Source: Pontiella sp.
GTDB lineage: Bacteria; Verrucomicrobiota; Kiritimatiellia; Kiritimatiellales; Pontiellaceae
Length of the DNA stretch: 64,000 bases
Reading direction: 5' to 3'
NCBI GenBank assembly: GCA_050290185.1
Contig: JBNKHE010000003.1
Location: forward strand, 128,001-192,000
The notes under the pieces were generated by a model. The model was given only the letters and a program-made list of their open reading frames with translations. It searched no databases and was not told the origin of the DNA. The position numbers and the translations under genes were made by a program. Below are positions 15,630-63,004 of the stretch, piece by piece (the stretch's first letter is position 1; each line of letters starts with the position of its first letter).

Positions 15630-15663
15630 CCGTTCGCTTTCTTTCAGTTTTGATTTGAATGCC

Positions 15664-15701
15664 AAGGTGGTGAAAGTTTACTTTCTCCACCTTGTTTTTT
15701 T
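15664..15701 (+). terminator. Intrinsic terminator-like hairpin between the beta-barrel gene and wzc
   Basis: AAGGTGG-T-GAAAGT/ACTTTC-T-CCACCTT stem followed by G and seven T. Confidence 0.6.
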
Positions 15702-15712
15702 AACTTGGAGTA

Positions 15713-17815: not shown

Positions 17816-17844
17816 CAATAAATGTTTGAAAGAGGTTTGATAGA

Positions 17845-18483
17845 ATGATTCGAATTATATTTTTCCAACTGTTCATAGTAGCATCTATGCTGGTTTCTGG
17901 ATGTGTCGTTCAGCCCGTTAATGGCTCGTCGGTAGGGACTCCGGCTATCGGCGGCAACATGATCGATTCTGCGGCTCCGGGTGAGGCACCCGACACCCGC
18001 CAGATTAAGGCTTATGTACTGAAGCCTCAGGATCCGCTCTATATCCGTTTCAGCGGCATACAAGAACAACAGGTATTGGAAGTGGTGATCGATGAGAACG
18101 GTGAGATTAATCTATTGCATATCCATTCGCCGGTCATGGCTGCGGGACTTACCACTTCGGCGTTGGAAGACAAGATAGAGCGCCTGTACATCGATGGGGG
18201 AATCTACAAAACGGTGTCGGTCAACGTAACCATGACAGCGAAGGCCTACTATGTGCAGGGAGAGGTCAATGCACCGGGCAAGTTCCAGCTTACCAGTGGA
18301 ACGACGCTTATTCAAGCCATTGCCGAAGCCCGAGGTCCGACGCCATTTGCGAGCAAGAAGATTACCATTACACGGCAAGGACAAATCTATAAGTTCAACT
18401 GGAAGGAGCTCTTAGAGGATCCTTCGAAAGACGTAAAGATTGAAGCTGGCGACGTGATCAAGGTTTGGCAATCCTGGTACTAG
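17845..18483 (+). CDS. Short polysaccharide export (OPX/Wza-like) lipoprotein
   Basis: Lipobox LVSGC, Poly_export motif IDENGEINL...AAGLT and one SLBB domain (YVQGEVNAPG). Confidence 0.85.
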   Translation: MIRIIFFQLFIVASMLVSGCVVQPVNGSSVGTPAIGGNMIDSAAPGEAPDTRQIKAYVLKPQDPLYIRFSGIQEQQVLEVVIDENGEINLLHIHSPVMAAGLTTSALEDKIERLYIDGGIYKTVSVNVTMTAKAYYVQGEVNAPGKFQLTSGTTLIQAIAEARGPTPFASKKITITRQGQIYKFNWKELLEDPSKDVKIEAGDVIKVWQSWY

Positions 18484-45633: not shown

Positions 45634-47007
45634 ATGGAATGGATTGAAATAACAGGTGTGGTGGTATTCATCTCGACGGTATTCATCGTTCTGGGAATGT
45701 GGCAGCGGTCTGTCCAGCGGGCCGAGGAGGAACGTCTGGCCGAAGAAGTACGGGCCGCCGAAGAGGAAGGCGCGAACCAGGCGCTTACCCAGCACCCCCA
45801 GATCGATACGAGTCGCTGCTTAGGTTGCGGCAGTTGCGCGGCGGCTTGTCCCGAGCACGGAGTGATTGCTATCGTTGACGGCAAGGCCCGGTTAGTTCGC
45901 GCATCTCATTGCGTCGGACACGGGAGTTGCGAACAGGCCTGTCCCGTCGGAGCCTTGATGGTCGGACTGGGCGATCTCTCTTCGCGGGTGGATATCCCCG
46001 TATTGAGCGACGAGCGCGAAACGACGGTTCCAGGGGTGTTTATTGCCGGAGAACTAACCGGTATCGGTTTGATTCGCAATGCGGTCACGCAGGGGACTCA
46101 GATCACCGACACGATCGCCGGACGTCTCAAGAGGCAGGGCCCGCGATTGGGTGACGAAGGCATGGTCGATATCCTGATTGTGGGATGCGGACCCTCCGGG
46201 ATTGCGGCCACACTGCGCGCCCACGAACTGGGCCTGCGCTACATGACGATCGATCAGGACGATCTGGGCGGTACCGTCCGGAAATATCCCCGCAATAAAA
46301 TGACCCTGACACAACCGGTCGATCTGCCACTGTATGGCCGGATGAAGCGCACCCAGTATTCCAAGGAAGAGCTGATTGCACTATGGGAAAAGGTTTTCAG
46401 AAAAGAGGGGATCGAAGTGCGGACTGGTGTGAAGTTCACCGGTCTGGAACCGCGATCCGACGGTGTGCTTTCTGTGGAGACCAGCGCCGGTTCCGTACTC
46501 TGCCGGTATTGCATTCTCGCGCTGGGCCGCCGCGGTACGCCGCGCCGGTTGGGAGTCCCCGGTGAAGATTCGGAGCGGGTGCTTTACCAGCTCATCGATG
46601 CTGCGGAATACAGGCAGAAGAAGGTGCTCGTGGTGGGCGGTGGCGACAGCGCCATCGAAGCGGCCCTCGCCTTGGCCACCCAGGCCGGTAACACGGTGAC
46701 GCTTTCCTATAGGCGCAACGCGTTCTTCCGAATCAAGTCCAGAAATCGCGAAGGACTGGAAAAAGCCTCCGCGGAGGGCAAGGTCAGCGTGATCCTGAAT
46801 TCGCAAGTGCAACTGATCGACCGGGACTACGTCAAGATTGATGTCAACGACGAAGAGGGCGGCGATCCGGAAGTAAAGCGCGTCGCGTATGACTATGTAT
46901 TCGTCTTCGCCGGAGGCGAACCGCCTTATCCGTTATTGCAGAAGGTAGGAGTCTCATTCGGCGGAGAAGATAAGGCGGAGCCGGACTCGATCAAGGAGGC
47001 GAGCTAG
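45634..47007 (+). CDS. Membrane-anchored 4Fe-4S ferredoxin / FAD-NAD(P)H oxidoreductase fusion
   Basis: N-terminal TM. Cluster motifs CLGCGSCAAACP and CVGHGSCEQACP. TTVPGVFIAGE, FAD motif IVGCGPSG, NAD(P) motif VVGGGDSA and YRR. Confidence 0.85.
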   Translation: MEWIEITGVVVFISTVFIVLGMWQRSVQRAEEERLAEEVRAAEEEGANQALTQHPQIDTSRCLGCGSCAAACPEHGVIAIVDGKARLVRASHCVGHGSCEQACPVGALMVGLGDLSSRVDIPVLSDERETTVPGVFIAGELTGIGLIRNAVTQGTQITDTIAGRLKRQGPRLGDEGMVDILIVGCGPSGIAATLRAHELGLRYMTIDQDDLGGTVRKYPRNKMTLTQPVDLPLYGRMKRTQYSKEELIALWEKVFRKEGIEVRTGVKFTGLEPRSDGVLSVETSAGSVLCRYCILALGRRGTPRRLGVPGEDSERVLYQLIDAAEYRQKKVLVVGGGDSAIEAALALATQAGNTVTLSYRRNAFFRIKSRNREGLEKASAEGKVSVILNSQVQLIDRDYVKIDVNDEEGGDPEVKRVAYDYVFVFAGGEPPYPLLQKVGVSFGGEDKAEPDSIKEAS

Positions 47008-47009
47008 CC

Positions 47010-47909
47010 ATGTCCGAATCGGTCCGTACCCGCGAAAAAACCAGATTTCGAACGCCGGCGATATGGGTGGTGCAATCCCTCGTACTCGGGATCTTTGCCT
47101 GTTTCATTATTTTTCATTGGGACTATTACAGTCTGCCGCGTGCTGAACGGCCCTTTCACGCTGCGCACTCCTCTCTTCGTTCGTCCGGACTGGCCGGACT
47201 TTGGATGGGCGTCGGGGCGGCCTCCCTTTTTGTGCTGAACCTGGGCTATCTGGTACGCAAGCGCCTGATTCGTTTCTCCTGGCTGGGCCCCTTGCGCCAA
47301 TGGATGAACTTTCATGTGGTCACCGGTATTGTCGGGGGCGGTTGCGTGGCCGTGCATATGGCCATGGCCCCGTCCAGTGCCATGGGGACCATGGCCCTGA
47401 TCGCCCTGTGCATTACGGTGGTCACGGGCATTGTCGGCCGCACCATCTACATCCGTGTTCCGCGTTCCGCCGAAGGGCGGGAGCTGGAATTTAGGCAGGT
47501 GAAGGATCAGTTGGAACAATGCCGGCTGGAACTGGAGCTAACCGGCGTCCATGCCAATTGGCTGCATGGTGAAAAACCGCAGGAAGGCGTACGACACACC
47601 AGCTTGATGGGGGGATTTGCTGCCCTTATCGTGGGGGACCGCCAGCGCCGGCACGATTATCGCCAGCTCAGGAAAGAGATTCTGGGCTCGGCGAGACTGA
47701 AGGAATCTGCGGCGCATATTCTTCCGATAGCCCAAGCCTATTGCATGCATTGGCAGTGGTTTGTCCGCTACTATGAACTGCGAAACCTGATCTCCTCCTG
47801 GCGCTTTTTCCATCGCTGGCTGGCGATTCTGATGCTCTTTGTGGTGCTGGGCCATGTGGTTGTGGCGATTCGGTTCGGCGGTCTATCGCTTTTCGGGGGG
47901 AGTCATTAA
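47010..47909 (+). CDS. Inner-membrane protein, probable di-haem cytochrome b (ferric-reductase-like)
   Basis: Several TM helices, two of which carry His pairs at i/i+14 (HVVTGIVGGGCVAVH and HRWLAILMLFVVLGH). Confidence 0.65.
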   Translation: MSESVRTREKTRFRTPAIWVVQSLVLGIFACFIIFHWDYYSLPRAERPFHAAHSSLRSSGLAGLWMGVGAASLFVLNLGYLVRKRLIRFSWLGPLRQWMNFHVVTGIVGGGCVAVHMAMAPSSAMGTMALIALCITVVTGIVGRTIYIRVPRSAEGRELEFRQVKDQLEQCRLELELTGVHANWLHGEKPQEGVRHTSLMGGFAALIVGDRQRRHDYRQLRKEILGSARLKESAAHILPIAQAYCMHWQWFVRYYELRNLISSWRFFHRWLAILMLFVVLGHVVVAIRFGGLSLFGGSH

Positions 47910-49645
47910 TGAAAGTGACCCCAAAAATGATGATGTGGGTTTTCGGACTGCTGACGATCGGCGGGCTGGCCTTGTTTCTCGCCCTGTACCAAAGTTCGCC
48001 GGGACCTCTTACTACAGCCCATGCCACTGCGGTGCCGGGCAACATGATCTGGTCGTGCAAGAAGTGCCACTCCGATGACGGAATGGAATCGGGGTGTTTG
48101 TCGTGCCACGCCGAAATCGCGAACCAACTACACGAAAAAACCGGTTTTCACACCTATCTGCGTACCCAGTCATCCGCCAGTTGCGAACAGTGCCACCCCG
48201 AGCACCATGGGGCCGACTTCCCGCTGGTGAGCGACGTGTCGTGGCAGGGCACGGATACCAATGCATTCAAGCATCCGCAGGTGGAATTCAAGCTGGAGGG
48301 CAAGCACGACGAACTGGCCTGCAAGCAATGCCATACCGAAAAATTCCATGAACCCGTTGTCTTGGCCGATTTTCCTGATCAGGTTCGGACGGATACCATG
48401 CTAGGCCTGAACCAGGAGTGCATCAGTTGCCATGTCGATGTGCACAAGAGCGGCGAGAAGACCCGCGACTGCACCCAGTGCCATGATCAAAATGCCTTCA
48501 AGCCGGCTCCCTTCTTCGATCATAATAAATATTTTGTGCTGGATGGCCCCCATGCCACGGCGGCCTGCGCGGCCTGCCACCAAACCGATGTTGCGCCTGA
48601 GCTGATGGAAGGCGAACGGGATCTGAAGTTCGGACCGGTCAAAGGCAAGAAATGCGCTGATTGCCACGAATCCCCGCACCGTTTTGACAAGCAACTGCAG
48701 GGCGACTGCATGCGCTGCCACAAGGGCACCGATGAAAAATGGGTGATGGGGCAGCGAGGCGTGGATGTAGCCTTCCATGATCACTTCGGATTCGTTCTGC
48801 AGGGCGCGCACGCCAAGGTGGAATGCGCTAAATGCCATGCGCCGGAGCTGGAAACCTATACTGCGCGCTTCCCGGATCCCGCCGCACCCGGTTACAACCG
48901 CCAGGCGGATCAATGCAGCAGCTGCCACAAAGATCCCCACGACGGCCAGTTCAAGGAACACTATCCTTCCTGCGCCCAGTGCCATACCGTGGATCGTTTC
49001 ATGCCCAGTACGCTGGGGCCGGCTGACCATCCCGAACGCTATCCGCTGAAGAACGGCCACGTGGCGGCAGCCTGCAACCAGTGCCACAAGATCGAAGCGG
49101 GCAGTGACGTGCGCCGGTTCAAGGGCACCGCCAGCTCCTGCAAGGAATGCCACGCCAACCCGCACGGAAGCCAGTTCGATAAGGAGCTCGCTCAAAACGA
49201 TTGCACCGCCTGCCATGCCCCCGATTTTTCCACCTTCAAGATCAAGCAGTACAAGCACGAGAACATGCGCGCTTTCTTCCAGGGCAAGGGCCATGCCAAG
49301 GCGGCGTGTATCCAGTGCCATGCCGAGCCCGCCTCCGACCAGGAAATACTTCAGTACCGCGGGACACCGACCACGTGCGCGTCCTGCCACACGGATATCC
49401 ACCGCGGTCAGTTCCTGCAGCTTGGTCAAACGCAGTGCGAGCGTTGTCATGGTTCGTTCGATCAATGGAAAGCAGACCGCTTCGAACATGATCGCGATTC
49501 CAAATTCCTGCTGGATAAGGCGCATGTAAAGGTTGAATGCGCCTCCTGTCACCTTCCTGTAATGCAACCCGACGGCCAGTCGGTTGTCCAATATCGACCG
49601 TTAACCACCCGATGTGAGGATTGTCATGGTTTCCAAAAACAATAA
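47909..49645 (+). CDS. Multihaem cytochrome c (20 CxxCH)
   Basis: N-terminal TM/signal followed by SPGPL. 20 CxxCH motifs counted by hand, in trihaem-like repeats. TAATG overlap with the upstream gene. Confidence 0.92.
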   Translation: MKVTPKMMMWVFGLLTIGGLALFLALYQSSPGPLTTAHATAVPGNMIWSCKKCHSDDGMESGCLSCHAEIANQLHEKTGFHTYLRTQSSASCEQCHPEHHGADFPLVSDVSWQGTDTNAFKHPQVEFKLEGKHDELACKQCHTEKFHEPVVLADFPDQVRTDTMLGLNQECISCHVDVHKSGEKTRDCTQCHDQNAFKPAPFFDHNKYFVLDGPHATAACAACHQTDVAPELMEGERDLKFGPVKGKKCADCHESPHRFDKQLQGDCMRCHKGTDEKWVMGQRGVDVAFHDHFGFVLQGAHAKVECAKCHAPELETYTARFPDPAAPGYNRQADQCSSCHKDPHDGQFKEHYPSCAQCHTVDRFMPSTLGPADHPERYPLKNGHVAAACNQCHKIEAGSDVRRFKGTASSCKECHANPHGSQFDKELAQNDCTACHAPDFSTFKIKQYKHENMRAFFQGKGHAKAACIQCHAEPASDQEILQYRGTPTTCASCHTDIHRGQFLQLGQTQCERCHGSFDQWKADRFEHDRDSKFLLDKAHVKVECASCHLPVMQPDGQSVVQYRPLTTRCEDCHGFQKQ

Positions 49646-51515
49646 GCCAGCGCTAAAGATTGCCGTATGGGTCGTATTCCTGCTCGGACTCGTGGTGGCC
49701 GGGTGCCAGTTTGTTGTGCCCCGCCAGGAATGGAACAAGAAGGCCTGGGGCCCGTTGGTTCCACACACCAAGTTTCCCGGGGATTGCAGTCTTTGCCACC
49801 TGCCGGATCGGTGGGACAAACTGCGTGATGATTTTAGTTTCGATCATGAAAAGGAGACCGGCTATGCGCTTGAAGGCGCCCATGCCGATGCGGCCTGCTT
49901 GCGGTGCCACAACGACCGGGGGCCAGTGGAGGTATATGTGGCACGAGGATGTGCCGGTTGTCACGCCGACCCTCATGCAAGTACGATGGGCCTGGATTGC
50001 GAACGTTGCCATAGCCAAATGACCTGGGAGCCGACGGGGCTAATCGGCGAACATGCCCGTACCCGCTTCCCGTTGATGGGCTCCCATGCCATTGCCACAT
50101 GCGAAAGCTGCCACGAAGGTGCGGCCGCAGGAGAATTCCGCGGCGCACCCTTGGAGTGCGATATCTGCCACCGCGACGATGCGGCTCAAACCACGGATCC
50201 CAACCATGTGGCCAATGGATGGGTTTCAGATTGCCAGCGTTGCCACAATCCCGTGGGTTGGAACGGGGCGAATATCGTGCATGACTTCTTCCCGCTCACC
50301 GGCGGGCATAGCGGGGTGAACTGCGTGCAATGCCATACCACGCCGGGCGATTTCTCCGGGTTGTCGCAGGATTGCTATTCCTGCCATGAGCCGGACTACC
50401 AGAGTGCGCCCAGCCATTTGACAGAGAATTTCTCGCATGACTGCACGCAGTGCCATTCAAAAAATGCATGGACACCTGCCACATTCGACCACTCCTTCTT
50501 CCCGCTCACCGGTGAGCACAAGGGCTTGTCTTGTTCGGAGTGCCATACGGGTGGAACGTATTCGGGATTGTCAACGGACTGCGCTTCATGCCATGGATCC
50601 GACTTCGATAGCGCGCCGAACCATGTGGCCCAAAGCTATCCGCAGACCTGCGAAGATTGTCACAGTACATCAGGCTGGACGCCGGCCTCATTTGATCATT
50701 CCGCTTTTCCGCTGACCGGTGCTCACGCGGATTCAACCTGTGCGCAATGCCATTCGGGCGGTGTCTACGCCGGATTGCCTTCCAACTGCTATTCATGCCA
50801 TGACACCGACTATCAGGGCGCACCCGACCACGTTGCCCTGAACTTCCCGCAAACCTGCGAGCAGTGCCATAGCACCACGGCCTGGACTCCTGCGGCCATT
50901 GATCACTCGTTCTTCCCGTTGACGCAGGGGCATGCTGGCGTGGGTTGTGCAGAATGTCATCAAGGCGGCACCTATAGTGGTTTGTCGCAGGACTGCTATT
51001 CCTGCCATGATAACGATTTCCAAGGCGCGCCTGATCATGTGACCCTGAACTTCTCGCACGACTGCGAGCAGTGCCATACCCGTTCGGCCTGGACGCCGGC
51101 GAGCTTCGATCACTCCTTCTTCCCGCTGACGCAGGGCCATTCCGGACTTACCTGCAACACGTGCCATGAGAACGGGACATACAGCGGTCTCTCGCAGGAC
51201 TGTTATTCGTGTCACCAAAGTGACTATCAGGGTGCGCAGGATCACGCGAGCCTTGGTTTTCCTCATGATTGCACGCAGTGCCATTCGACCTCGTCGTGGG
51301 GATCGGCCAGCTTCTCGCACACCGATTTTCCGCTTCGCGGAAACCACGATGTTTCGTGCACGCGGTGCCACAATACGGGCAGCACGCAGACCTTTACCTG
51401 TCTGAACAATTGCCATGGGAAGAGTTCAACAGACAGCGATCATAGTGAAGTCAGGAACTACAGCTATACATCATCGGCCTGCTACAACTGCCACCCCGAT
51501 GGAAGAGAGGATTAG
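49626..51515 (+). CDS. Multihaem cytochrome c lipoprotein (24 CxxCH + 1 CxxxCH)
   Basis: GAGGA RBS before ATG 49626, lipobox VVAGC, and 24 canonical motifs plus CLNNCH counted by hand. Confidence 0.92.
   Translation: MVSKNNKPALKIAVWVVFLLGLVVAGCQFVVPRQEWNKKAWGPLVPHTKFPGDCSLCHLPDRWDKLRDDFSFDHEKETGYALEGAHADAACLRCHNDRGPVEVYVARGCAGCHADPHASTMGLDCERCHSQMTWEPTGLIGEHARTRFPLMGSHAIATCESCHEGAAAGEFRGAPLECDICHRDDAAQTTDPNHVANGWVSDCQRCHNPVGWNGANIVHDFFPLTGGHSGVNCVQCHTTPGDFSGLSQDCYSCHEPDYQSAPSHLTENFSHDCTQCHSKNAWTPATFDHSFFPLTGEHKGLSCSECHTGGTYSGLSTDCASCHGSDFDSAPNHVAQSYPQTCEDCHSTSGWTPASFDHSAFPLTGAHADSTCAQCHSGGVYAGLPSNCYSCHDTDYQGAPDHVALNFPQTCEQCHSTTAWTPAAIDHSFFPLTQGHAGVGCAECHQGGTYSGLSQDCYSCHDNDFQGAPDHVTLNFSHDCEQCHTRSAWTPASFDHSFFPLTQGHSGLTCNTCHENGTYSGLSQDCYSCHQSDYQGAQDHASLGFPHDCTQCHSTSSWGSASFSHTDFPLRGNHDVSCTRCHNTGSTQTFTCLNNCHGKSSTDSDHSEVRNYSYTSSACYNCHPDGRED
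50274..51311 (+). repeat. Intragenic tandem repeat, five ~207-bp (69-aa) trihaem units
   Basis: Units starting xxH-S/D-F/A-F-P-L-T begin at ~50274, 50484, 50691, 50898 and 51105. Each has three CxxCH. Confidence 0.85.
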
Positions 51516-51546
51516 CGCTGTGGAACCGGAATCCACCCCGTTGGAA

Positions 51547-53226
51547 ATGCCTATGAATACAAGATGCTTTAGATTGAGAGGGAAGGACTGGATCGTGGCG
51601 CTCCTGCTGTCCGTTTCTGCATTGCCATGCGCCTCAAAGGCCGAGATGCAGAATGTTCCGGCGCATATCACGTACCGGATCGAGGAGGGCGTCTATGTGG
51701 ACATTGGCTCCGGCAGCGGATTGGAGCGGGGCATCAAGGGTAGCCTGCTGCTGGAGGACGGCCGTTCCTTCACCTTCGAGGTCATGCAGGCTGCAAACTC
51801 ATCCGCCCTCCTGCGGTTCGGGGAGCAGGGCGTCGATCTTGCCGCCGGCAACGAGATCCTGCGGGTCGAGCTGGTATTCGATGACGCGCAACAGAATAGT
51901 GAGGAAACCCCGGTCATCCCCCCGGCCGCCACCACCGCCGCGCCGGAAGAGCCGGAACCTTTTGTGCCGCTCCTGGAGCGCATGAACAAGATGCCGGCCT
52001 TGACGCAGAGCAAGAATGTGAGCCACGGAAATTTCGGCGTACGGCAAAGCATGCAGACCGGTACCGACAACCAGTTGGACCGGATGGTGACGAGGCTGTA
52101 CACCTCGGGCAGCATCGACCGCATTGAAGGCACCGAATGGAGCCTGAAATGGTCGGGCAGTGCGCGCTACCGCACCGGCGATGCCTACGTCGACCACCCC
52201 GACTACCAGAGCCTCCAGCCGATGATCTACAATCTGATGCTGCAGCATCCCCTGGAGGCGGGCGGCTTTGTCCGGCTTGGACGTTTTTTGCCCTACGAAC
52301 TGCCGGGGGTGGGCTATATTGATGGCGGCCAGCTTGAAGTCTCAAACGGAGGCCTCTTGCGCTTTGGCGTATTGGCGGGCTTGAAACCCGGTCGTGTGAA
52401 TCTCGAAGTAACGGCCGACGAGCCGACCGTGGCCGGCTATACCACGCTGGAGGCAGGCAAGCAGGGATCGTCCTACTATTCCGGTACGGCTGGCCTGATG
52501 GCTTCGCTCTATCAGGGAGAGGCCAATCGTTTTGCTCTGTTGTTCGATCAACGGGCCAGTCTCGGGCCGAAGCTGGATGTCATTTCGACCGCGCAAATCG
52601 ATTTTGGTGTCGCCAATACCACCAACAGCGCCACCCAGCTTTCGCGCTTTGATTTGACGGCATCGTCCCGCATTGCCCGCAATCATACGCTGCGGGCGGG
52701 GATGGATCACTGGGAACGGGCCGATACGCCGTCGGAACGCGATCTACTCACGATCGTGGACAACAGCTTGTTTGATTCGGGCTACTGGCGCTACTGGGTG
52801 GGGGCGCGCCATCGTCTGCCGCTCAAACTGAATCTCAACGAAGAAGTGGCCTACACGGTTTCCGACAACACGGATGCCGCCATGCGGTGGCGCGTGGGAT
52901 TGACGCGCACAGGGTTTTTCCAGTGGACCTCCGCCAGCATTTCGTCCACGATCTATAATCTGGAATCGCAGGGGAACAGCGGTTTCGGCGGATTGCTATC
53001 CGCCTATCTGCCGTTCTGGGACAGCCGGCTTTCGGTGCGTCCGTCCGCCAGCATGCGCTGGCTGGACCCGGACAACGGAGGCGATGGGCTTACCATGTCC
53101 TATTACTCGGTTTACCTTGATGCGCGCATAAACCGAAAGTGGCTGCTTTCCGGCGGCTTGACGCAATCCATTGGCGACGGGGCCGACGCCACATCGTTCG
53201 ATCTCGGTTTACGCTACAGCTGGTAG
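51547..53226 (+). CDS. Outer-membrane beta-barrel (putative porin of the cytochrome cluster)
   Basis: Signal peptide (WIVALLLSVSALPCASKA), amphipathic strands and terminal beta-signal FDLGLRYSW. Start 51547 or 51553. Confidence 0.72.
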   Translation: MPMNTRCFRLRGKDWIVALLLSVSALPCASKAEMQNVPAHITYRIEEGVYVDIGSGSGLERGIKGSLLLEDGRSFTFEVMQAANSSALLRFGEQGVDLAAGNEILRVELVFDDAQQNSEETPVIPPAATTAAPEEPEPFVPLLERMNKMPALTQSKNVSHGNFGVRQSMQTGTDNQLDRMVTRLYTSGSIDRIEGTEWSLKWSGSARYRTGDAYVDHPDYQSLQPMIYNLMLQHPLEAGGFVRLGRFLPYELPGVGYIDGGQLEVSNGGLLRFGVLAGLKPGRVNLEVTADEPTVAGYTTLEAGKQGSSYYSGTAGLMASLYQGEANRFALLFDQRASLGPKLDVISTAQIDFGVANTTNSATQLSRFDLTASSRIARNHTLRAGMDHWERADTPSERDLLTIVDNSLFDSGYWRYWVGARHRLPLKLNLNEEVAYTVSDNTDAAMRWRVGLTRTGFFQWTSASISSTIYNLESQGNSGFGGLLSAYLPFWDSRLSVRPSASMRWLDPDNGGDGLTMSYYSVYLDARINRKWLLSGGLTQSIGDGADATSFDLGLRYSW

Positions 53227-53435: not shown

Positions 53436-54653
53436 CTACCAGCCGCCTAGTTCTTCGGCAAGATCGACGGTGATGGTTTCCGCCATGTATTCGAATTTGG
53501 CGGATTGAAGGGCGGCGTCAAGCATGCGTTCGCGGACGGAGATCAGGTCGCGCACTTGCTCCAGCGGAACGTCGGCCAATACTTCGAGATCTTCATTAAG
53601 CTGCCTGATGACTGGGCCCGTTCGCTTTTTTTGCTCGGCAACCTGCATGTAGTAGGCGTTGGCCATGTCCAACATGACGCGCAGCCGGTCTTCAATGATT
53701 CTGCGTTGCTGGTCCTGGGCCGCAATGAACAGGGCTTGCTGATGCTGGTAGACGGCAATGTCGGGATTGCGGGTGCCCCAGGGGAGCACGATCGAGGTCG
53801 ACAGTTCCCATCCGCTGGATCCGTTGTCATAGTCTACGCGATAGGCGGGCTGGAGATACTTGAGGCGGAAGCCATCCTCCGAACGCGCCGCTTCTTCGGC
53901 CAGCTGCATGGCGCGCAAATCGATCCCGAACTGGCGGTAGTCGGAGCGTTGTTCCAAGGCGGTTTTAAGCAGGGACTTGATTTCAAGCTGCGAAGGTATA
54001 TCGATGACCGCCATCGTGGAAAGCTGTTCCAGATCCGCATCGGGTCCAACGACCATTCTGATGCGCCGCTGCGCATCCAGAAAGTTGTTCCCCAGATCGG
54101 CTTGGTCGTTTGCCAGCGCAAGGTAGGTGCTGTAGAGCCGGGCCCGGTCGCTTACGGCTAACTGGTTCAACGTCACTGCTTGGTCGGCCTTTTTCAGATA
54201 GGGCTCGATGAAACGTATTTCGTTTTCAGTCAGCGCAAGCTGTTGCTTGAGCATACGGTAGGTGCAGAAGTCGCGGTAAATTGCGATGACATCCTTCCAC
54301 TCCAATGTCTTGATCCGCAGTTGTTCGGAGCGGGCGGCAAGGGTCAGTTGCTCATGGAGGCGCTTCTTGCTCCAGCGGCCGGGCAGGTAGACCCGCAGGG
54401 CGAGTCCGACATCTTCGTCGCTGATGCTTGGGCGTAGTTCGAGCCCGTAGTCGGAGCGGGAGCGTGCAAAGGTTTTCGACTGCTCCAATTCCGTCGATTC
54501 ATCGATCAGGGCACCTGCGTTTTGGTTGCGGATCGTGTCGTGGAAAGAAGCCTGTTCCATGAGGGCGCTAAGTGTTTGGTCGGATGTTGCAAGAACCGTT
54601 GAGGAGATGCAGCAGAGTGCGGGGAGAACGATGGCGCAAGTGCGGAGTTGCAT
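53436..54653 (-). CDS. TolC-family outer-membrane efflux protein (divergent)
   Basis: Signal peptide and twice-repeated helix/beta-hairpin pattern (LALRVYLP; LSTSIVLPW). ALEQRSDY motif. TAATG overlap with the HlyD gene. Confidence 0.65.
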   Translation of the reverse strand: MQLRTCAIVLPALCCISSTVLATSDQTLSALMEQASFHDTIRNQNAGALIDESTELEQSKTFARSRSDYGLELRPSISDEDVGLALRVYLPGRWSKKRLHEQLTLAARSEQLRIKTLEWKDVIAIYRDFCTYRMLKQQLALTENEIRFIEPYLKKADQAVTLNQLAVSDRARLYSTYLALANDQADLGNNFLDAQRRIRMVVGPDADLEQLSTMAVIDIPSQLEIKSLLKTALEQRSDYRQFGIDLRAMQLAEEAARSEDGFRLKYLQPAYRVDYDNGSSGWELSTSIVLPWGTRNPDIAVYQHQQALFIAAQDQQRRIIEDRLRVMLDMANAYYMQVAEQKKRTGPVIRQLNEDLEVLADVPLEQVRDLISVRERMLDAALQSAKFEYMAETITVDLAEELGGW

Positions 54654-55666
54654 TATTCCCTCCCAAACCATTGTTCAAAGACGGAGATGTCCGGCACCAC
54701 AACTACTTGTTCGCCGGGCAGCAGATCGCCATCATCGATTTCGATCACAATCCTGCGCCCGCGGAGCAACTGGTCGCTGAATCCCGTGTTGACCGGAAGC
54801 TTGCGGATATCCGCTGTGATGGATTGGACTTCTCCATGGAATATGCTGCGGTTGGCCTCGGTTATGACACGGCAACGTTCGCCGACGGCAAGGTCCACGC
54901 GATTTGCTTCGGGCATGAAGGCAATAACCCGGCGGGTTGAAATATTACTGATGCGTACGACCGGATCGCCGGTTTCAACAATATCGCCCGGCTGGTGAAG
55001 GACTTCGGCAATGACCCCGGTGGTCGTTGCCACCAGACGGCACTGCGACTCCTGAAGCTGCTGGAGGTCGTCGGCATTGAACTGTTCCGCTTCGCTGGCG
55101 GCAATGGCGAGGCGTTCCTCAAGCTGGGCGATCAGATCCGGATAGTGCGGCAACACTTCCTTAATGGCCTCAATTTGCGGTCGGAGATCCTCGGTCTCCT
55201 GCTCCAGTACGAGATGTCTGGCCAGCAGGTCTTTACTTCGTTTCCATCGGGCTTCCAGCACCTTAAGTTCAGCGGCGGTTTTGGCTTGTTCCAGCTTCAT
55301 GCTTTCGAGCTCGTAGCGGATGGAACGGACCTTGTCCCTGGTTTTCATCAGCGAGGCCTGGTCCATCAGCAGATCCGTAGCCAGCGATTCGTTGTCGAGT
55401 TCGCCGATCAGTTGACCGGCTTGGACGGTGTCGCCCATTTCGACCAGCAGGCTCTTGAGCCGGGCGTCTTCCAGCGGCGAAACATATTCATAGATCCGCT
55501 CGGCTGCACCGGGGAACTTGACGCGATACAACCCGCCCGGCAGCAGGACGAGCACCGCAATGGCGGCGGCGATCCATACCAGCCATGGCCATCCGCTGAA
55601 AAACTTGCGGATCAGATGGCGACGTCTTTGCCGCAGGGGAGGACGTTTGAAAGTTTTATTAGTCAT
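54653..55666 (-). CDS. HlyD-family periplasmic adaptor (membrane fusion protein)
   Basis: N-terminal TM. Two lipoyl half-motifs (LVEMGDTVQAGQLI; GVIAEVLHQPGDIVETGDPV) flank a coiled coil. Start ATG 55666. Confidence 0.82.
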   Translation of the reverse strand: MTNKTFKRPPLRQRRRHLIRKFFSGWPWLVWIAAAIAVLVLLPGGLYRVKFPGAAERIYEYVSPLEDARLKSLLVEMGDTVQAGQLIGELDNESLATDLLMDQASLMKTRDKVRSIRYELESMKLEQAKTAAELKVLEARWKRSKDLLARHLVLEQETEDLRPQIEAIKEVLPHYPDLIAQLEERLAIAASEAEQFNADDLQQLQESQCRLVATTTGVIAEVLHQPGDIVETGDPVVRISNISTRRVIAFMPEANRVDLAVGERCRVITEANRSIFHGEVQSITADIRKLPVNTGFSDQLLRGRRIVIEIDDGDLLPGEQVVVVPDISVFEQWFGRE

Positions 55667-55682
55667 GGTGTCTCGTTCTCGC

Positions 55683-56384
55683 TTAAAGTTCCACAGTGGT
55701 GCGTTGCATGACCAGATTGACCTCGGCAATGGTGTCGAGGGCCTCTAGCTTTTTCACGAGGTCAACCTGGTAGGACGGGTCGATCAGCCGTACCTGATAG
55801 GAATATTCCAGCAGGTCGCCCTGAACCGCTTCGCGCATGGCGATAAGCATGTAGGCCGAGCAGCACTCGGCCAGAACCTTGTCTACATCTTCGCGGGCAT
55901 GATCGTCGTCCGCTTCGACAAGAAAACGGAGCATGGCTTCGTAGCGCCGGTGGGTGGCAAACGGTGCCCAGTGGAGCAGGGCAATGACCGAGCTGAGCAA
56001 TATGCATCCCGATACCGCTACGGCAAACATGCCCGCCCCGCAGGCAATGCCCAGACCAAGGGCTGCGAACAGGAACATCATATCGCGCGGATCGCGCACC
56101 ACCGTACGGAAGCGGATCAGCGAAAGCGCTCCCAGTACCCCGATGCCACGGGCAAGGCTGTCGCCCATCGACATCATCACCATACAGGTGATCATGCCGC
56201 CGAGAATGAGCGTGTGGACGAACGATCGCGAATAGGAGAGCGATTGAAAGGTCAACTGGTATAGTTTGGCGATCACCGAGCAAAGCACGAAGCTCAACAG
56301 CATGGCCGATATGACGTGCTGTAGGCTCACGCTCTGCGAGCTGCTTGCCACCGACATTAAATCCAACAATCCTCCCGAATTCAT
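55683..56384 (-). CDS. DUF4956 family membrane protein
   Basis: YSRSFVHTL, GALSLIRFRT and GLGIACGAG, with an ACT-like C-terminal domain. AAGGAG RBS. Confidence 0.85.
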   Translation of the reverse strand: MNSGGLLDLMSVASSSQSVSLQHVISAMLLSFVLCSVIAKLYQLTFQSLSYSRSFVHTLILGGMITCMVMMSMGDSLARGIGVLGALSLIRFRTVVRDPRDMMFLFAALGLGIACGAGMFAVAVSGCILLSSVIALLHWAPFATHRRYEAMLRFLVEADDDHAREDVDKVLAECCSAYMLIAMREAVQGDLLEYSYQVRLIDPSYQVDLVKKLEALDTIAEVNLVMQRTTVEL

Positions 56385-56396
56385 AACACTCCTTGC

Positions 56397-57230
56397 TTAA
56401 TCAAACATAAATTCATCGGAAAAGGGAGCGTCCCCTTTTCCGATCAAAAGGTTTTCCATCCAAATAGCCGTCGAGTACTTGCAGTTGCCGCAACGGATCA
56501 GTTCGAAATGCTGTACCAGTTCCACCATCCACGTCGGAACCTGTTCGGTACATTTGACCTCCAGGACCAGCGTGGAATCCTTGCGGTTTCTTACGATACC
56601 GCTGTCCATGGAAATAAAGCGGCCGCCGTCCCCCCAGTTATAGGCATCGAAGACGGGCTGGTAGCAAAGCTGGGAATCGAAGGTGATCCGGGCGTAATGG
56701 TCGAAGATTCCCGTAAACGCTTCGCGGCAGTAGCGGATGTAAACCTTCGGCTCGGCGCCGATTTCCTGCGTCAACCGCACAAAGTCACGGAAGGCTTCGC
56801 GTTCCTTCACGGAGTTCAGGTTCAGCTCGCTGACATGTCGTTTCAGGATGCCGGGCTTCCAGTCGCTAAAGGGAATGCAGGCGCGCGATTTGATAATACG
56901 GTCATAGTACTTACGTTTGATTTCGAGAAATACCGGTGCATCACCGGGAGGCTTTCCATAGGTGCGTACGCGCAATTTGAAGCGGTGGGTGGCTTCCCAT
57001 TCCTTGGCATGGTGCAGCGACATGGAAGGGGAGTCGTACTGGAGCGTGGTAATGTAATACTTTCCGCCGGCAGCTTCGCAGTGCTTGTCTGTTATGCAAT
57101 AAGGCTTGATGAAATCCTTGATCGGTTCAACCAGCGCGCGCGGTATGATATACTTTGCCTCAAAGCGATCCAGCTCCGTTGAAAAATCGGCTCCATCCTT
57201 AATCGCATTGATATGGCTATTCTTATTCAT
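56397..57230 (-). CDS. VTC-domain polyphosphate polymerase family protein
   Basis: RFEAKY, TLQYDS, KLRVRTY, FLEIKRK, YCREAF, RITFD, VLEVK and CKY tunnel-metalloenzyme motifs. Confidence 0.85.
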   Translation of the reverse strand: MNKNSHINAIKDGADFSTELDRFEAKYIIPRALVEPIKDFIKPYCITDKHCEAAGGKYYITTLQYDSPSMSLHHAKEWEATHRFKLRVRTYGKPPGDAPVFLEIKRKYYDRIIKSRACIPFSDWKPGILKRHVSELNLNSVKEREAFRDFVRLTQEIGAEPKVYIRYCREAFTGIFDHYARITFDSQLCYQPVFDAYNWGDGGRFISMDSGIVRNRKDSTLVLEVKCTEQVPTWMVELVQHFELIRCGNCKYSTAIWMENLLIGKGDAPFSDEFMFD

Positions 57231-57751
57231 AGATATAGATTCATTGATAGCACTTATATATTCCTAACAACTAGCAAAAAAAGGTTAGGACGAACGAACT
57301 GTGAAATAGATGGATTCTAAACTTCGAATAGGGTTGAAGGTCGATATACCAACGCATGCCCATCCGAATTATGCCGGGTGCTCGCGAAACACGTGCATGC
57401 GCGATACCCGCAGCGGTCCTTGGAATGTGGATTAAAAACTGGAAGGTGAAAGTCTGGATGTCCGCGGAACCCGGAAGCCAACTGCATCAGTCCGAACGCC
57501 CGGTGCCGTTCGGGCCGGATATCGTGCTTGAATAGATCTTGTTTGGCGTCATAACTACCATTGTATAAAGGTCTATTGAATATGTTCTGGTCTAATTCTG
57601 TCTGAATGTTAAGGATTGGATAGGTTGACAAAAGGGATGGTTTAAATAATAAAAAAGGCCATTTGCGATCACCTAATTCAAAGTCTAGGCATATAGATAG
57701 TACAACCTTGAACTGGTTGCTTGGTTAACATTGCTCCAAAAGGTGGAAAAT

Positions 57752-60700
57752 ATGCGCCTATCCATTTTCAGTATCGTATGGCTGACAGTGTGCTCGACCG
57801 TCGTGGCGGGGCCGGTTGTGAACGAATTCATGGCCTCAAATCAGTCAATTTATCCAGACAATTGCGATTTTGACGACTATTCCGACTGGGTCGAGCTCTA
57901 TAATTCCGACAGCACCAACGTACCGTTGACCGATTACTACCTGACGGATGATCTGACGCTGCCGCTTAAGTGGAGGATTCCCGCTGGTGGCGTTATTCCG
58001 GCACACGGCTATTTAATGGTGAGGGCCGATGGCTACGATGCCGGACCGGGGGAAACGCATATCCGCGGCTACTGGGACTGGAACAGCACGTTCACCACCG
58101 TTCGGTATCACTCCAGTTTCAAGCTGAGTGCCGGAGGAGAATCATTGGGGATTTTCCATCTAATCAATCCTGCAGCGGAAAACACGCTGATTTCGGCCGG
58201 ATCGACCTGGAAATATCGTGACACCGGCGGCAATCCCGGTGCGGGCTGGATGGGTTTGACGTTCGACGACTCGGCTTGGAGTTCCGGAGCCGCCAAGCTT
58301 GGCTATGGCGATGGTGATGAGGCTACCGTGGTCGATTTCGGACCTGATCAAAACAATAAATACCCGACCACCCATTTCCGGTATCACTTTAATGTAACAG
58401 ACCCTTCGCTGATTGCCGACGTCCGCCTGAACCTGATGATAGATGACGGGGCCATTGCCTATCTGAACGGAATCGAAATTGCCCGTATACGCGTGGCGGA
58501 CGGGATCACCTATCTTGACTATTCCGGCGGAGGATACGGGCCTGATAACCCAAGCGCGTTCGAGTTGATAGATTATACATCCATGCCTTTCCGGGCAGGG
58601 GACAATGTCCTGGCGGTGGAGGTTCATCAGCATGACGGCAGCAGCAGTGATATGGCATTTGATGCAGAATTGATCGTCTTGGAAGTCGTTTCCACCGATG
58701 TTGTTCTGGTCGATGCAATCACTAATTTCCCTGCGCAACTGACGGATGTCTCCTACGGTCGCGATCCGGCTTCCACCAACGGGTGGTCCTTCTTTGCGGA
58801 GCCGACGCCGGAAGGTACCAATTCGACCGAAGCACTCTCGCAATTTGCAGAGGCGTCCGCCGTGACGGCATCGCGGGACAGCGGATTCTACAGTGGGGCC
58901 CAATCCGTCACGTTGTCCAGTGCCGGCGCCGGCGAGACGATTCGCTATACCCTCGACGGCTCCGTACCCACGTCCGGCTCGACGGTCTATTCATCCGCAC
59001 TGCCGGTCGGCAGCACAACCGTTCTGCGGGCGCGGGCCTTCGCATCCGGCAAGATTCCCGGACCCATGCTAACCCGCTCCATCTTCATTGACGAAAATTC
59101 ATCGTTACCGGTTTTCTCCATGGTGGCCGATCCGGAAACCCTGTTTGGGGATACCATTGGCATCTATTCAAATACCCAGACCTATTACAACATCGGCGGC
59201 CAATTCGGATCGGGGTACTACCCGCTCAAAGGTCGTGAAATACCCATTCGTCTGGAAATGTTCGAAGCAGACGAAACCCCGGCGTTTTCCGTCAATGCAG
59301 GCGCCCGTATCGCCGGAGAGAATATTTGGTCCAAGGCGCAAAAGCCGTTCAATATCTACATGCGCTCGAAATATGGCGACGATTTGATCAACTACCAAAT
59401 GTTTCCGGACCAGCCGGTCGCCACTTTTGGTGAAATCAACCTGCGCAACGGCGGCGATGACTGGGAGGCAACCCTGTTGCGCGATGCCATGATGCCTTCC
59501 ATATTCGAGGGTCAGGCTGATGCCGGGCTGTACACCTATCGTCCGGGTATCCTGTTCATCAATGGAGATTTCTGGGGCATCTACAACATCCGCAAGCGCT
59601 TCGATCCAACCTATTTCGCCAACGAACATCAGCTGTCCGAAAGCGAGTATGACCAGCTGAAGTATGCCAATGATTTTCCGAATAATATTTATGCCAGGTT
59701 GCAAGCCGATGCAGGCTCCACGGAAGCCTACGAATCCTTCCTGGCATTCTGCACCACCAACGACACCACGGATCCGGTGGTTTACAGCCAGATCGAAGCG
59801 CAAATGAATATCGACTCCTTCATCGATTATGTCGTTGGTACGGATTACGCGGTAAACACCAGCTGGCAGCACAATCGGGAATTCTGGCGCGGCAATACAC
59901 CCGGCTCAAAATGGCAGTGGATCATCAATGATTCCGACCGGGGATTTGTCACTGGCAACAAAACAGGATCGATAATCGATAATTTCATTGGGAACTACTC
60001 CCTCTTCCAGCGCTTAGACAACAACACCAACTTTATCAACCGCTTGATCCAGCGCTACGCCGCTCATGTGGGCAGCACGTTTAATCCCCAGCGGGTCAGC
60101 GACAAGCTGGATATCCTCACGGCCGAACAGGACGGCGAGGTGGCCCGCCATCAGGCCCGCTGGCCGGGATCCATGGTCAGTCGTACCGCCCAGATCGCCG
60201 ATATCAAGCAATTTGCCGCGGAGCGACCCTCCTACGCCCTCAGCCGGCTGCAGTTGGAGCTGGGGCTTAGCCTCAGCATGGCGGACCTGTCTGTCAACCT
60301 CTCGCACGTCGACGGCGGACGCGTACTGGTTGCCGGCGTGCCGATGGCGCCCGAATACACCAGTGCCGTTGGCATGTTCCTAAACACGCCATTTGAACTG
60401 ACCGCCGAGCCGGCACCGGGCTACGCCTTCGACAGCTGGAGCACGGGCAGCACGAATAGCACCATTGAAATTACGATGGCCGGTGCCCAGACCATTACGG
60501 CCAACTTTACACCCAACGCGGAAACCATTGTGCCTTCGACCATTTCTTCCGACACCACTCTTACTTCTGCGGGATCGCCCTATTCAGTAACCAATGACCT
60601 CGTCGTGGAAGCCGGCCATGTGCTCACCCTTGGACCGGGCGTCCGGCTGAACATGTCCAAGGGCAAGAGCATCGTCGTGTACGGATCGCTGAATGCGGAC

Positions 60701-63004
60701 GGCACCGCCAGCCAGCCTGTGGAGATTGTATCGCGCACCGGCGCACCTTGGGGCAACCTGAGCTTTGTCAATGCCACCGGCCTTTCAACCCTGAACCATG
60801 TCACCATTCGTGATGCCACACCCAGCCGGCAGGATCCGCTGAACCTCAAGGCGGCAGTCTCCGGATACAACTCGGCAATCACGCTCGACCATGCCGACAT
60901 CGAAGCACTCCTTCCGGTATTTGCCCGCTATGGGTCGACGACCTTGACCGACTGCAGCATACATATTCTGTTCACCGGAGACGGGATCAACATCAAGTCC
61001 GGTGACGGCCTGGTGGAGAACAGCACCTTTACCGGGAACAATGCTCCGGATACCGACGCCATCGACTTCGACAACGTGGTCGGGGGGCAGATCCGAGGAA
61101 ATCGCATCTATGCCTTCAGTGGCTTCAACAGCGATGCCATCGACGTGGGCGAGGGGTGCCAGAGCCTGATGGTGGTCAGCAACCGGATCTTCAATGTCTC
61201 CGACAAGGGCATTTCGGTGGGCCAGGCATCCGTCGCCTTCATCGAGCGCAACCTGATTGTTGACTGCGATATGGGTGTGGGCATCAAGGATGCCGGCTCC
61301 ACGGCCTACATCGACCAGAATACCTTTGCCCGCAATAATATCGGGGTGGCTGCCTTCGAAAAGAATGCCGGGGCCGGCGGCGGGGCTGCCTATATCAGCA
61401 ACTGCATCTTTTCGCGGTCCAAGGACGAGCCGGTGTTTGTTGATTCACTTTCCACCCTGACGGCGGACTACTCGCTCTCCGACACCCTCGCACTGGCCGG
61501 AACCGGCAATCTGTTTGCGGATCCGCTTTTCACCGACGACGGCTCGTACGATTTCTCGCTGACGCCCGCTTCGCCGGCGATCGATGCCGGCGATCCCGCG
61601 CATGCCCTGGATGACGATAGTTCCCGTGCCGACATGGGGGCCTACTACACCTTCAATCCCGAGGATTATCCCTACTTCATTCCCAATCTGGTGGTGATCA
61701 ACGAAGTGCTGGCGCACTCGCACGATATTGCGCCGGACTGGATCGAACTGTACAACTCGAGTTCCAAGCCCATTGATCTGGGCGGTTGGTATCTCAGCGA
61801 CGATCCGGACACCCCCCTGAAATATCGTATCGCCGACGGCACCATGCTTCCGGCGAATGGCTATGCCCTTTTTTACGAGGATCTTAACTTCGGGGCCGGA
61901 AGCAGCGACCCCGGCGCACTTGTTCCCTTTGCCCTCAGCGAAAACGGCGATACGGTCAATGTGTTTGGACCGGGTAATGAATTGCGTCCCGACTACACCG
62001 AAAAGGAAACCTTCGGGGCATCACTTCGTGGAGTCACCCGGGGACGCTACTACAAGTCCAGCGCACGCACGTACAACTTCGTGTCCATGCAAGCGGCAAC
62101 GCCCGGAACAGCTAACAGCGATCCGCTGGTCGGCCCCGTGGTGATCAGCGAAATCATGTATCATCCGCCCGTGGGCGAAGCCGAATATATCGAGCTGGCC
62201 AATATCGATACGAATCCGGTTACGCTCTACGACTCCGATGTTGGCGAGGGATGGCGAATGACGAAGGGCATCGACCATGTGTTCCCTTCCGGCAGTCCGG
62301 TTGTGATGCAACCGGGCGAAAAGATCGTTCTCGTGCGCAATGCCACCGCGTTCGCGGCTGCATACAGTGTTCCATCGGGAACCCAGGTCATCCAATGGGA
62401 TGCCGGAGGTCTCGATAACGGAGGCGAAACACTGGAAATATCACTGCCCGGCGATACGAACGGGGTCGGTGTGCTGCAGTTTGTACGAATAGATCGCGTT
62501 GACTTTTCGGATAGTGATCCATGGCCCGTTGGCCCGGACGGCGGCGGTACGGCGCTCACCCGCATCGACGAGCGGGCCTACGGCAATGACTTTTCCAACT
62601 GGCGCGAATCGTCGGTCACCCCGGGGCAGACTGGCTTCCAGGCGTGGTTGGCAATGCAAAGCCTGCCCGTGGGTCAGGATGGTCCGAACGACGATCCCGA
62701 CGGAGACGGCATTAAGACCGCCATGGAGTATGCCTGCGGCACCGATCCGATGGTCTTCTCCACGATGGCCGGGGTGTATGCGATCTTCCCGACGCCTGCA
62801 ACCATTTCCTTCGTACTGCCGGCCGAGCGCGCTGATCTGGGCTATGCCATCCAGAAGGCGACCAGCCTTTCGGTGCCCGATTGGACCGACCTCGTGGGCA
62901 CGGTCTCGCCGAGCGGCGGGCAGACGGCGATCGACGCTGTTGACCCCGCTGTCGGGGATCATGCGTACTATCGGTTGAAGGTTATCCTTTATAACCAGTA
63001 TTGA
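57752..63004 (+). CDS. Large secreted CotH-kinase family protein with lamin-tail domains and a beta-helix (1750 aa)
   Basis: Signal peptide. Three LTD starts (VVNEFMA, VINEVLA, VISEIMY). IRYTLDGSVP FN3-associated domain. CotH motifs NLRNGG, LRD, INGDFWGIY and WQWIINDSD. DAIDFD/DKGISVG beta-helix. C-terminal DPDGDG...YYRL. Confidence 0.85.
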   Translation: MRLSIFSIVWLTVCSTVVAGPVVNEFMASNQSIYPDNCDFDDYSDWVELYNSDSTNVPLTDYYLTDDLTLPLKWRIPAGGVIPAHGYLMVRADGYDAGPGETHIRGYWDWNSTFTTVRYHSSFKLSAGGESLGIFHLINPAAENTLISAGSTWKYRDTGGNPGAGWMGLTFDDSAWSSGAAKLGYGDGDEATVVDFGPDQNNKYPTTHFRYHFNVTDPSLIADVRLNLMIDDGAIAYLNGIEIARIRVADGITYLDYSGGGYGPDNPSAFELIDYTSMPFRAGDNVLAVEVHQHDGSSSDMAFDAELIVLEVVSTDVVLVDAITNFPAQLTDVSYGRDPASTNGWSFFAEPTPEGTNSTEALSQFAEASAVTASRDSGFYSGAQSVTLSSAGAGETIRYTLDGSVPTSGSTVYSSALPVGSTTVLRARAFASGKIPGPMLTRSIFIDENSSLPVFSMVADPETLFGDTIGIYSNTQTYYNIGGQFGSGYYPLKGREIPIRLEMFEADETPAFSVNAGARIAGENIWSKAQKPFNIYMRSKYGDDLINYQMFPDQPVATFGEINLRNGGDDWEATLLRDAMMPSIFEGQADAGLYTYRPGILFINGDFWGIYNIRKRFDPTYFANEHQLSESEYDQLKYANDFPNNIYARLQADAGSTEAYESFLAFCTTNDTTDPVVYSQIEAQMNIDSFIDYVVGTDYAVNTSWQHNREFWRGNTPGSKWQWIINDSDRGFVTGNKTGSIIDNFIGNYSLFQRLDNNTNFINRLIQRYAAHVGSTFNPQRVSDKLDILTAEQDGEVARHQARWPGSMVSRTAQIADIKQFAAERPSYALSRLQLELGLSLSMADLSVNLSHVDGGRVLVAGVPMAPEYTSAVGMFLNTPFELTAEPAPGYAFDSWSTGSTNSTIEITMAGAQTITANFTPNAETIVPSTISSDTTLTSAGSPYSVTNDLVVEAGHVLTLGPGVRLNMSKGKSIVVYGSLNADGTASQPVEIVSRTGAPWGNLSFVNATGLSTLNHVTIRDATPSRQDPLNLKAAVSGYNSAITLDHADIEALLPVFARYGSTTLTDCSIHILFTGDGINIKSGDGLVENSTFTGNNAPDTDAIDFDNVVGGQIRGNRIYAFSGFNSDAIDVGEGCQSLMVVSNRIFNVSDKGISVGQASVAFIERNLIVDCDMGVGIKDAGSTAYIDQNTFARNNIGVAAFEKNAGAGGGAAYISNCIFSRSKDEPVFVDSLSTLTADYSLSDTLALAGTGNLFADPLFTDDGSYDFSLTPASPAIDAGDPAHALDDDSSRADMGAYYTFNPEDYPYFIPNLVVINEVLAHSHDIAPDWIELYNSSSKPIDLGGWYLSDDPDTPLKYRIADGTMLPANGYALFYEDLNFGAGSSDPGALVPFALSENGDTVNVFGPGNELRPDYTEKETFGASLRGVTRGRYYKSSARTYNFVSMQAATPGTANSDPLVGPVVISEIMYHPPVGEAEYIELANIDTNPVTLYDSDVGEGWRMTKGIDHVFPSGSPVVMQPGEKIVLVRNATAFAAAYSVPSGTQVIQWDAGGLDNGGETLEISLPGDTNGVGVLQFVRIDRVDFSDSDPWPVGPDGGGTALTRIDERAYGNDFSNWRESSVTPGQTGFQAWLAMQSLPVGQDGPNDDPDGDGIKTAMEYACGTDPMVFSTMAGVYAIFPTPATISFVLPAERADLGYAIQKATSLSVPDWTDLVGTVSPSGGQTAIDAVDPAVGDHAYYRLKVILYNQY

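Follow-up and report, generated by a model that had tools for sequence, protein, structure and literature searches.

Genes and products of the locus

In a 64,000-nucleotide stretch of the genome of Pontiella sp. (contig JBNKHE010000003.1, positions 128,001 to 192,000; hereafter the window), four minus-strand genes encode a VTC-domain enzyme, a DUF4956 membrane protein, a periplasmic adaptor, and an outer-membrane factor with a TolC fold, and a long gene for a secreted CotH-family protein faces them. The locus occupies window positions 53436..63004, and the source genome is 95.5% complete. A first-pass annotation had described a tightly linked unit here, and the description holds for all five open reading frames, their gaps, and their overlap. 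The VTC gene (56397..57230, minus strand) is separated by 12 nucleotides from the DUF4956 gene (55683..56384, minus), which in turn lies 16 nucleotides from the adaptor gene (54653..55666, minus), and the adaptor gene and the TolC-like gene (53436..54653, minus) share a TAATG stop/start overlap. Between the VTC gene and the CotH gene (57752..63004, plus) lies a divergent intergenic region of 521 nucleotides (57231..57751) that contains no sigma-70-like site and in which a promoter and terminator scan stayed at chance level. Contigs assembled from X3 and X4, two further DNA runs belonging to a single study, span all 30 bins of the assembly check with one differing letter, and a single X3 contig bridges the VTC-CotH junction from 57139 to 58285.

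The 277-residue tunnel enzyme matches the VTC domain (Pfam PF09359, E 7e-32), and its profile aligns with yeast Vtc4 (PDB 3g3q, E 2e-21) and matched no other tunnel enzyme family. It consists of the VTC domain alone, with no SPX domain, no fused three-helix membrane domain, and no hydrophobic segment. Residues R87, R89, K105, E224, and K251 are the equivalents of Vtc4 R264, R266, K281, E426, and K458, and all five are invariant in the 136 rows of the alignment. Mutating R264, R266, or E426 inactivates yeast VTC (PMC9911596), and K458 is catalytic in Vtc4 (PMC4641920). Hydrolytic tunnel enzymes need an acidic patch, in place of which Vtc4 has basic residues (PMC4641920). The Pontiella protein likewise carries basic residues at R22, K114, R116, and K226, as in Vtc4, and all 136 rows have a basic residue at the K226 position, where hydrolases have Glu. 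The site thus resembles that of a polymerase, apart from the retention of a single acid, E24, for which we have no explanation. As to the concern raised at first pass that the enzyme might be only a triphosphatase, its active site looks, from the sequence, more like that of Vtc4. VTC may also be the only intact candidate for making polyphosphate in the source genome, in which no PPK1 match was found. PPK2 matches at G000:C5:41587-42049 come as three overlapping fragments, interrupted by a stop, and probably represent a broken gene. Pontiella cells in exponential growth gave negative polyphosphate staining (PMC7356697).

The 233-residue DUF4956 protein (PF16316, E 4e-13; MgtC, E 5e-4) is the sole multi-pass membrane protein of the four-gene unit. 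Its model (pLDDT 84) has five predicted helices (21-139) followed by a C-terminal ACT-like domain, an MgtC-like architecture. The ACT-like domain matches the C-terminal domains of MgtC proteins (7qa5, Z 10.3, rmsd 2.4 over 90 aligned residues; 2lqj, Z 8.9, rmsd 3.3 over 87), and no match stood out for the membrane part in the fold searches. Within the alignment of 136 rows, R91-F92-R93 is invariant, and R79 is restricted to the clade that is followed by an adaptor, in which DUF4956 is unusually conserved. A complex prediction with two DUF4956 copies and VTC returned a score of 0.07 and a mark of 0.32, which is no answer and was counted neither for nor against an interaction. A DUF4956 scan of viral contigs found nothing.

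The two remaining products are an adaptor and a channel. By hydropathy, the 337-residue HlyD/EmrA-type adaptor (PF13437, HlyD_3, E 5e-11) is held in the membrane by a single N-terminal anchor (22-50) and has a basic tail on the cytoplasmic side, and its best PDB profile match is EmrA (4tko, E 1e-26). The 405-residue outer-membrane factor is divergent. It has no Pfam or NCBIfam match, yet its early assignment as TolC-like is confirmed by an AlphaFold model (pLDDT 87, from a 107-row alignment) that shows the TolC repeat and by a Foldseek search that ranks CusC and TolC at the top (E 1e-12, TM 0.64-0.66). The N-terminus is signal-peptide-like, three cassette relatives do match Pfam OEP, and the named homologues come from Pontiella and other Kiritimatiellales. 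Scanning genome contigs with the single protein returned nothing, and an alignment-based scan returned 29 loci. Across the 107 rows, three charged residues of the predicted barrel strands never vary: E72, R74, and R87. With the acidic E72 as fixed as the two arginines, barrel charge is weak evidence.

As the first-pass annotation stated, no ABC, RND, or MFS gene is found among the four genes, and ABC and RND queries from the source genome matched nothing inside any related cassette. MacAB-type units seen near cassettes carry their own adaptor, and clustering of 2969 neighbouring open reading frames revealed no recurrent transporter beside the cassette. Pairing with a distant ABC transporter, which would have refuted the first-pass reading, looks unlikely. 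Each of the other five TolC and adaptor pairs in the source genome sits with an RND or MacAB-type pump that belongs to it. Elsewhere in that genome (G000:C2:216554-221071), a 1505-residue open reading frame fuses an RND pump to a TolC domain.

Distribution, outlets, and CotH partners

VTC is present in 34 of the 89 genomes of the order. We examined 35 of the 36 VTC matches outside the source genome, and 30 of these 35 stretches carry VTC, DUF4956, adaptor, and TolC in that order on one strand. Three others break off at a contig edge before the unit is complete, one has the order CotH-VTC-DUF4956, and the last is a fragment. Of 401 genomes sampled evenly across the phylum, 62 contain DUF4956; with the three weakest matches and seven already sampled places set aside, they provided 60 stretches with 61 DUF4956 genes. 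VTC adjoins 57 of these 61. The gene after DUF4956 is an adaptor in 25, a CotH in 22, and an OprO/P phosphate porin in five; a CotH or CotH-like gene stands in another order in four, the adaptor lies upstream in one, and four have none of these. TolC directly follows in 14 of the 25 adaptor loci, and one ends at a contig edge. Among metagenome loci seeded with the adaptor clade (the best 80 of 319, hence biased, with some duplicates), the adaptor is next in 61 of 68, and TolC follows the adaptor in 34 of the 35 that are long enough. The synteny of adaptor and TolC with VTC and DUF4956 spans two classes; its absence would have refuted the first-pass reading. Four monoderm loci, from a search in which seven of eight plasmid matches were opened, make up the monoderm data together with two papers; they have VTC and DUF4956, in three cases with CotH, and none has an adaptor or TolC.

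After DUF4956 the cassette takes three forms: an adaptor, mostly with TolC; a membrane-anchored CotH; or a phosphate porin. The porin form comprises five genomes (L125-L129), in each of which VTC and DUF4956 are followed by an OprO/P phosphate-selective porin, with PhoH as the next gene in L125. In three loci (L089, L139, and L171), DUF4956 or the adaptor is split into two open reading frames, by frameshift or assembly error. A gene cluster resembling the mevalonate pathway, as judged by eye, lies upstream of the cassette in L036, L042, L044, L061, and L201.

The CotH protein that faces the cassette has 1750 residues (PF08757, E 8e-27, plus LTD) and is laid out as three LTD domains, an Fn3-like domain, a CotH domain at about 520-830, a beta-helix, and a sorting-like C-terminal tail. 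The family profile reaches PDB 5jd9 with E 7e-37; a phmmer search with the CotH domain alone did not. Both VTC and CotH are found in 32 genomes of the order, neither in 52, and one alone in five, all of which are less than 87% complete; among the 40 near-complete genomes, 17 have both and none has one alone. In the phylum sample, CotH is found in 57 of the 62 DUF4956 genomes. Kin among these genomes are not independent, and the counts were made genome by genome, not on a species tree. The link to CotH is stronger than the first-pass annotation knew. PPK1 is independent of VTC (14 of 34 VTC genomes and 21 of 55 others), a distribution on which we rejected VTC as a replacement for PPK1. CotH matches number up to 14 per genome, with four paralogues in the source genome, and the cassette is mostly single.

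The type of CotH tracks the outlet after DUF4956. LTD domains are found in 37 of 37 CotHs near adaptor cassettes, and an aromatic-basic C-terminal beta-strand tail in 25 of the 32 that are complete but in none of the 22 CotHs directly after DUF4956, which by eye start with an uncleaved membrane anchor. This tail, a pattern defined after the sequences had been seen, may be an outer-membrane sorting signal; NCBIfam offered no named sorting domain for it. The catalytic Asp is kept in 29 of 32 CotHs near adaptor cassettes and in the three other paralogues of the source genome, one of which lies at G000:C3:257948-263680. Membrane-anchored CotHs in seven loci (L131, L135, L140, L147, L152, L173, and L177), most with laminin-G, have Asn at that position. 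The divergent orientation noted at first pass is correct for this locus, where CotH lies on the opposite strand, and it is not conserved: the 16 order-level stretches with a CotH domain are divergent in four cases, co-directional in nine, and convergent in three, a count on which we rejected the divergent layout as meaningful.

A proposed export route and its rivals

The cassette is real, conserved, pump-less, and undescribed in its adaptor-TolC form, and the present analysis adds to the earlier picture its co-occurrence with CotH, its three outlets, the retained E24, the altered CotH, and the published knockout results. Our leading reading, to which we give slightly less than an even chance, is that the four genes form a synthase-coupled polyphosphate exporter serving surface CotHs. 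In its favour we count the synteny, the lack of an ABC or RND pump inside the cassettes, the Vtc4-type residues, the co-occurrence with CotH and the match between CotH type and outlet, the five porin loci, the monoderm loci that have neither adaptor nor TolC, and BgsA-BgsB-TolC as a precedent for a synthase joined to adaptor and TolC. VTC would likely make polyphosphate from ATP, and DUF4956 would likely pass it through the inner membrane, taking the place of a pump. A DUF4956 oligomer may form a pore for anions, which the Gly-rich helix 77-89 would line, flanked by Arg79 and Arg91/Arg93, and may bind the membrane anchor of the adaptor. Adaptor and TolC would take the polymer outside, if the presumed outward direction is correct, where surface CotHs would use or bind it, and a single cassette would serve every CotH paralogue in the cell, here four. 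A broader claim strikes us as doubtful: that bacteria own a split VTC machine in which polyphosphate from a Vtc4-type polymerase passes an MgtC-like pore and reaches an outlet matched to the CotH site (a membrane-anchored CotH, a phosphate porin, or, for CotHs outside the outer membrane, an adaptor-TolC duct), that CotHs are polyphosphate-driven extracellular kinases, and that TolC has in DUF4956 an inner-membrane partner of a new class.

A number of observations weigh against the export reading. Ten of the 25 adaptor loci in the phylum sample have no adjacent TolC; a cassette-type TolC lies elsewhere in three of the 13 genomes checked, and the other ten gave scores in the ordinary-TolC range only. 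The three architectures are three DUF4956 clades and therefore reflect few independent events, not dozens. OprO/P porins are uptake channels. Two Bacteroidota plasmids, in a search that covered plasmids and not chromosomes, pair DUF4956 with TolC or HlyD but have no VTC. In the phylum sample, 27 CotH genomes lack DUF4956, and after a second profile search 26 of the 84 CotH genomes still have no match to DUF4956 or to VTC. The CotHs of cassette-less genomes keep the catalytic Asp in 19 of 20 cases (one per stretch, the stretches drawn from 17 of the 27 genomes with CotH alone), and the idea that they are dead enzymes was rejected on this count.

The proteins themselves add further points on this side. 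E24 is kept in 135 of 136 VTC rows at the position of a Glu in the acidic patch of hydrolases, where Vtc4 has T198. DUF4956 gave no match to Vtc1, Vtc3, or Vtc4 in profile and fold searches, the hit lists of which were filled by the ACT domain; the resemblance of the membrane part to that of yeast VTC is therefore an analogy, and the protein looks MgtC-like rather than Vtc1-like. The facing CotH has Ser704 at the position of the catalytic Asp (D228 in B. subtilis) and keeps Asp727 at that of the metal Asp (D251), with both positions placed on 5jd9 by their 23-residue spacing (PMC7821199). A CotH domain is present, as predicted, but the adjacent protein is probably not a normal kinase and would bind or act by altered chemistry. 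The one set of published genetics found, in S. intermedius, is also awkward. Loss of the DUF4956 (MgtC-ACT) or CotH gene lowered aggregation by more than 50%, no such drop is reported for loss of the VTC gene, and Pel went up in one and down in the other of the DUF4956 and CotH mutants (PMC12345266). A simple chain from VTC through DUF4956 to CotH is not what these Streptococcus knockouts show.

Several of these points suit an alternative that we consider unlikely, in which DUF4956, adaptor, and TolC export a small phosphoryl donor such as ATP, pyrophosphate (PPi), or triphosphate (PPPi) for CotH and VTC plays an accessory part, as a hydrolase, transferase, or regulator, and can at times be dispensed with. 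The VTC-less plasmids, the four of 61 phylum loci in which VTC is not beside DUF4956, and the retained E24 would all fit, and OprO is pyrophosphate-selective. So would the aggregation defect reported for DUF4956 and CotH knockouts and not for VTC (PMC12345266) and the use of ATP as donor by B. subtilis CotH (PMC7821199). The near-constant VTC neighbour of DUF4956, 73-89% identical within the main clade, speaks against this alternative, and a dedicated open duct for ATP would presumably be costly. Moreover, with the enzyme mapped onto E2, E4, and E171 of AtTTM3 by motif register and PMC4641920 and without superposition, Arg or Lys seems to stand in place of two of the three Glu in metal site 2 of the hydrolases.

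It is quite improbable, in our estimation, that the locus serves phosphate uptake or sensing, with CotHs binding or releasing phosphate compounds, the porin or TolC duct admitting them, DUF4956 gating or signaling, and VTC trapping them as polyphosphate. Adaptor and TolC assemblies are exporters. The OprO/P porin of five loci would be at home in such a scheme, as would a source genome with no PPK1 match and PPK2 in pieces, an adjacent CotH without the catalytic Asp, and the MgtC/ACT architecture of DUF4956, MgtC being tied to phosphate metabolism (PMC12345266). PPK1, however, is unrelated to cassette presence, and apart from the single PhoH at L125, no phosphate-uptake family appeared among the recurring neighbour clusters, which were read by eye. 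Finally, we find it very improbable that an ABC or MFS pump encoded elsewhere drives adaptor and TolC, for instance in type I secretion of the CotHs, with VTC and DUF4956 only co-regulated. In its favour, three ABC exporter genes of the source genome have no adjoining adaptor, and the adaptor's best structural relative, EmrA, is an MFS partner (MFS genes were not searched genome-wide). Against it, the CotHs begin (by eye) with the Sec-type signal peptides that type I substrates lack, no pump gene recurs next to the cassette, and DUF4956 of the adaptor clade is unusually conserved, with clade-specific residues such as R79.

The export reading offers testable answers to two questions, namely the role of bacterial VTC-domain proteins and the source of phosphoryl donor for the secreted CotH kinases of non-sporulating bacteria. 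If true, it would provide TolC systems with a new class of inner-membrane partner and bacteria with a route for placing polyphosphate outside the cell, with a bearing on sediment phosphorus cycling and biofilm matrices. With its four small genes, the cassette lends itself to expression in a laboratory strain.

Two other groups of genes in the window deserve mention. Five plus-strand genes at 45634-53226 encode a 4Fe-4S-containing FAD oxidoreductase, a membrane protein, a pair of multiheme cytochromes (20 and 24 CxxCH motifs), and a 603-residue protein with no Pfam match that ends in a barrel-type aromatic tail. This cluster, which ends 209 nucleotides from the stop of the TolC-like gene on the opposite strand, resembles the porin-cytochrome conduits used in extracellular electron transfer. 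At 14457-18483 (plus strand), outer-membrane barrel-like, Wzc-like, and Wza-like genes, named by eye, belong to a polysaccharide export locus.

Relation to known systems

Listings from searches of open-access literature showed no publication on the adaptor-TolC form or on the activity of a bacterial VTC protein. The nearest published relatives by gene content are the Gram-positive Pel accessory genes cotH-PPP-DUF4956 (PMC7112168, PMC12345266) and NELoc-2 of C. perfringens (PMC2879425), which unite the same three families in one locus, published as accessory genes of unexplained function. The Gram-positive trio has no adaptor or TolC and is tied to Pel genes, outside of which PMC12345266 did not find it, whereas here the trio is common without Pel genes. 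With the MgtC family, DUF4956 shares a small membrane domain and an ACT-like C-terminal domain. It differs in falling below the curated MgtC cut-offs (20.9 bits against 31.4 in Pfam, 17.2 against 255 in a second library), in its invariant RFR motif, and in its genomic company of VTC, adaptor, or CotH.

The cassette belongs neither with the eukaryotic VTC complex nor with the ABC, RND, or MFS tripartite pumps. The yeast complex (Vtc4/Vtc3/Vtc1; PDB 3G3Q, 8I6V, 7YTJ) shares the catalytic residues of the tunnel enzyme, and its polyphosphate synthesis is proposed to be coupled to passage via a basic membrane pore (PMC9911596), much as we propose here. Unlike yeast VTC, the cassette has no SPX domain, encodes enzyme and membrane part in separate genes, uses an MgtC-like membrane part, has E24 for T198, and adds adaptor and TolC. 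EmrAB-TolC and type I secretion systems share the anchored adaptor and the TolC fold, but have a pump gene that the cassette lacks. In layout the cassette resembles BgsA-BgsB-TolC of Sinorhizobium meliloti, where a polymer synthase next to an HlyD-type adaptor stands in for the pump and TolC is required (PMC13438883). That synthase is one GT2 membrane protein and makes a glucan, whereas the Pontiella cassette has a soluble tunnel enzyme and a 233-residue MgtC-like protein and would make an inorganic polymer. Common to both, as judged by gene content, is a polymer-making enzyme (putative in Pontiella) encoded beside an adaptor with no pump.

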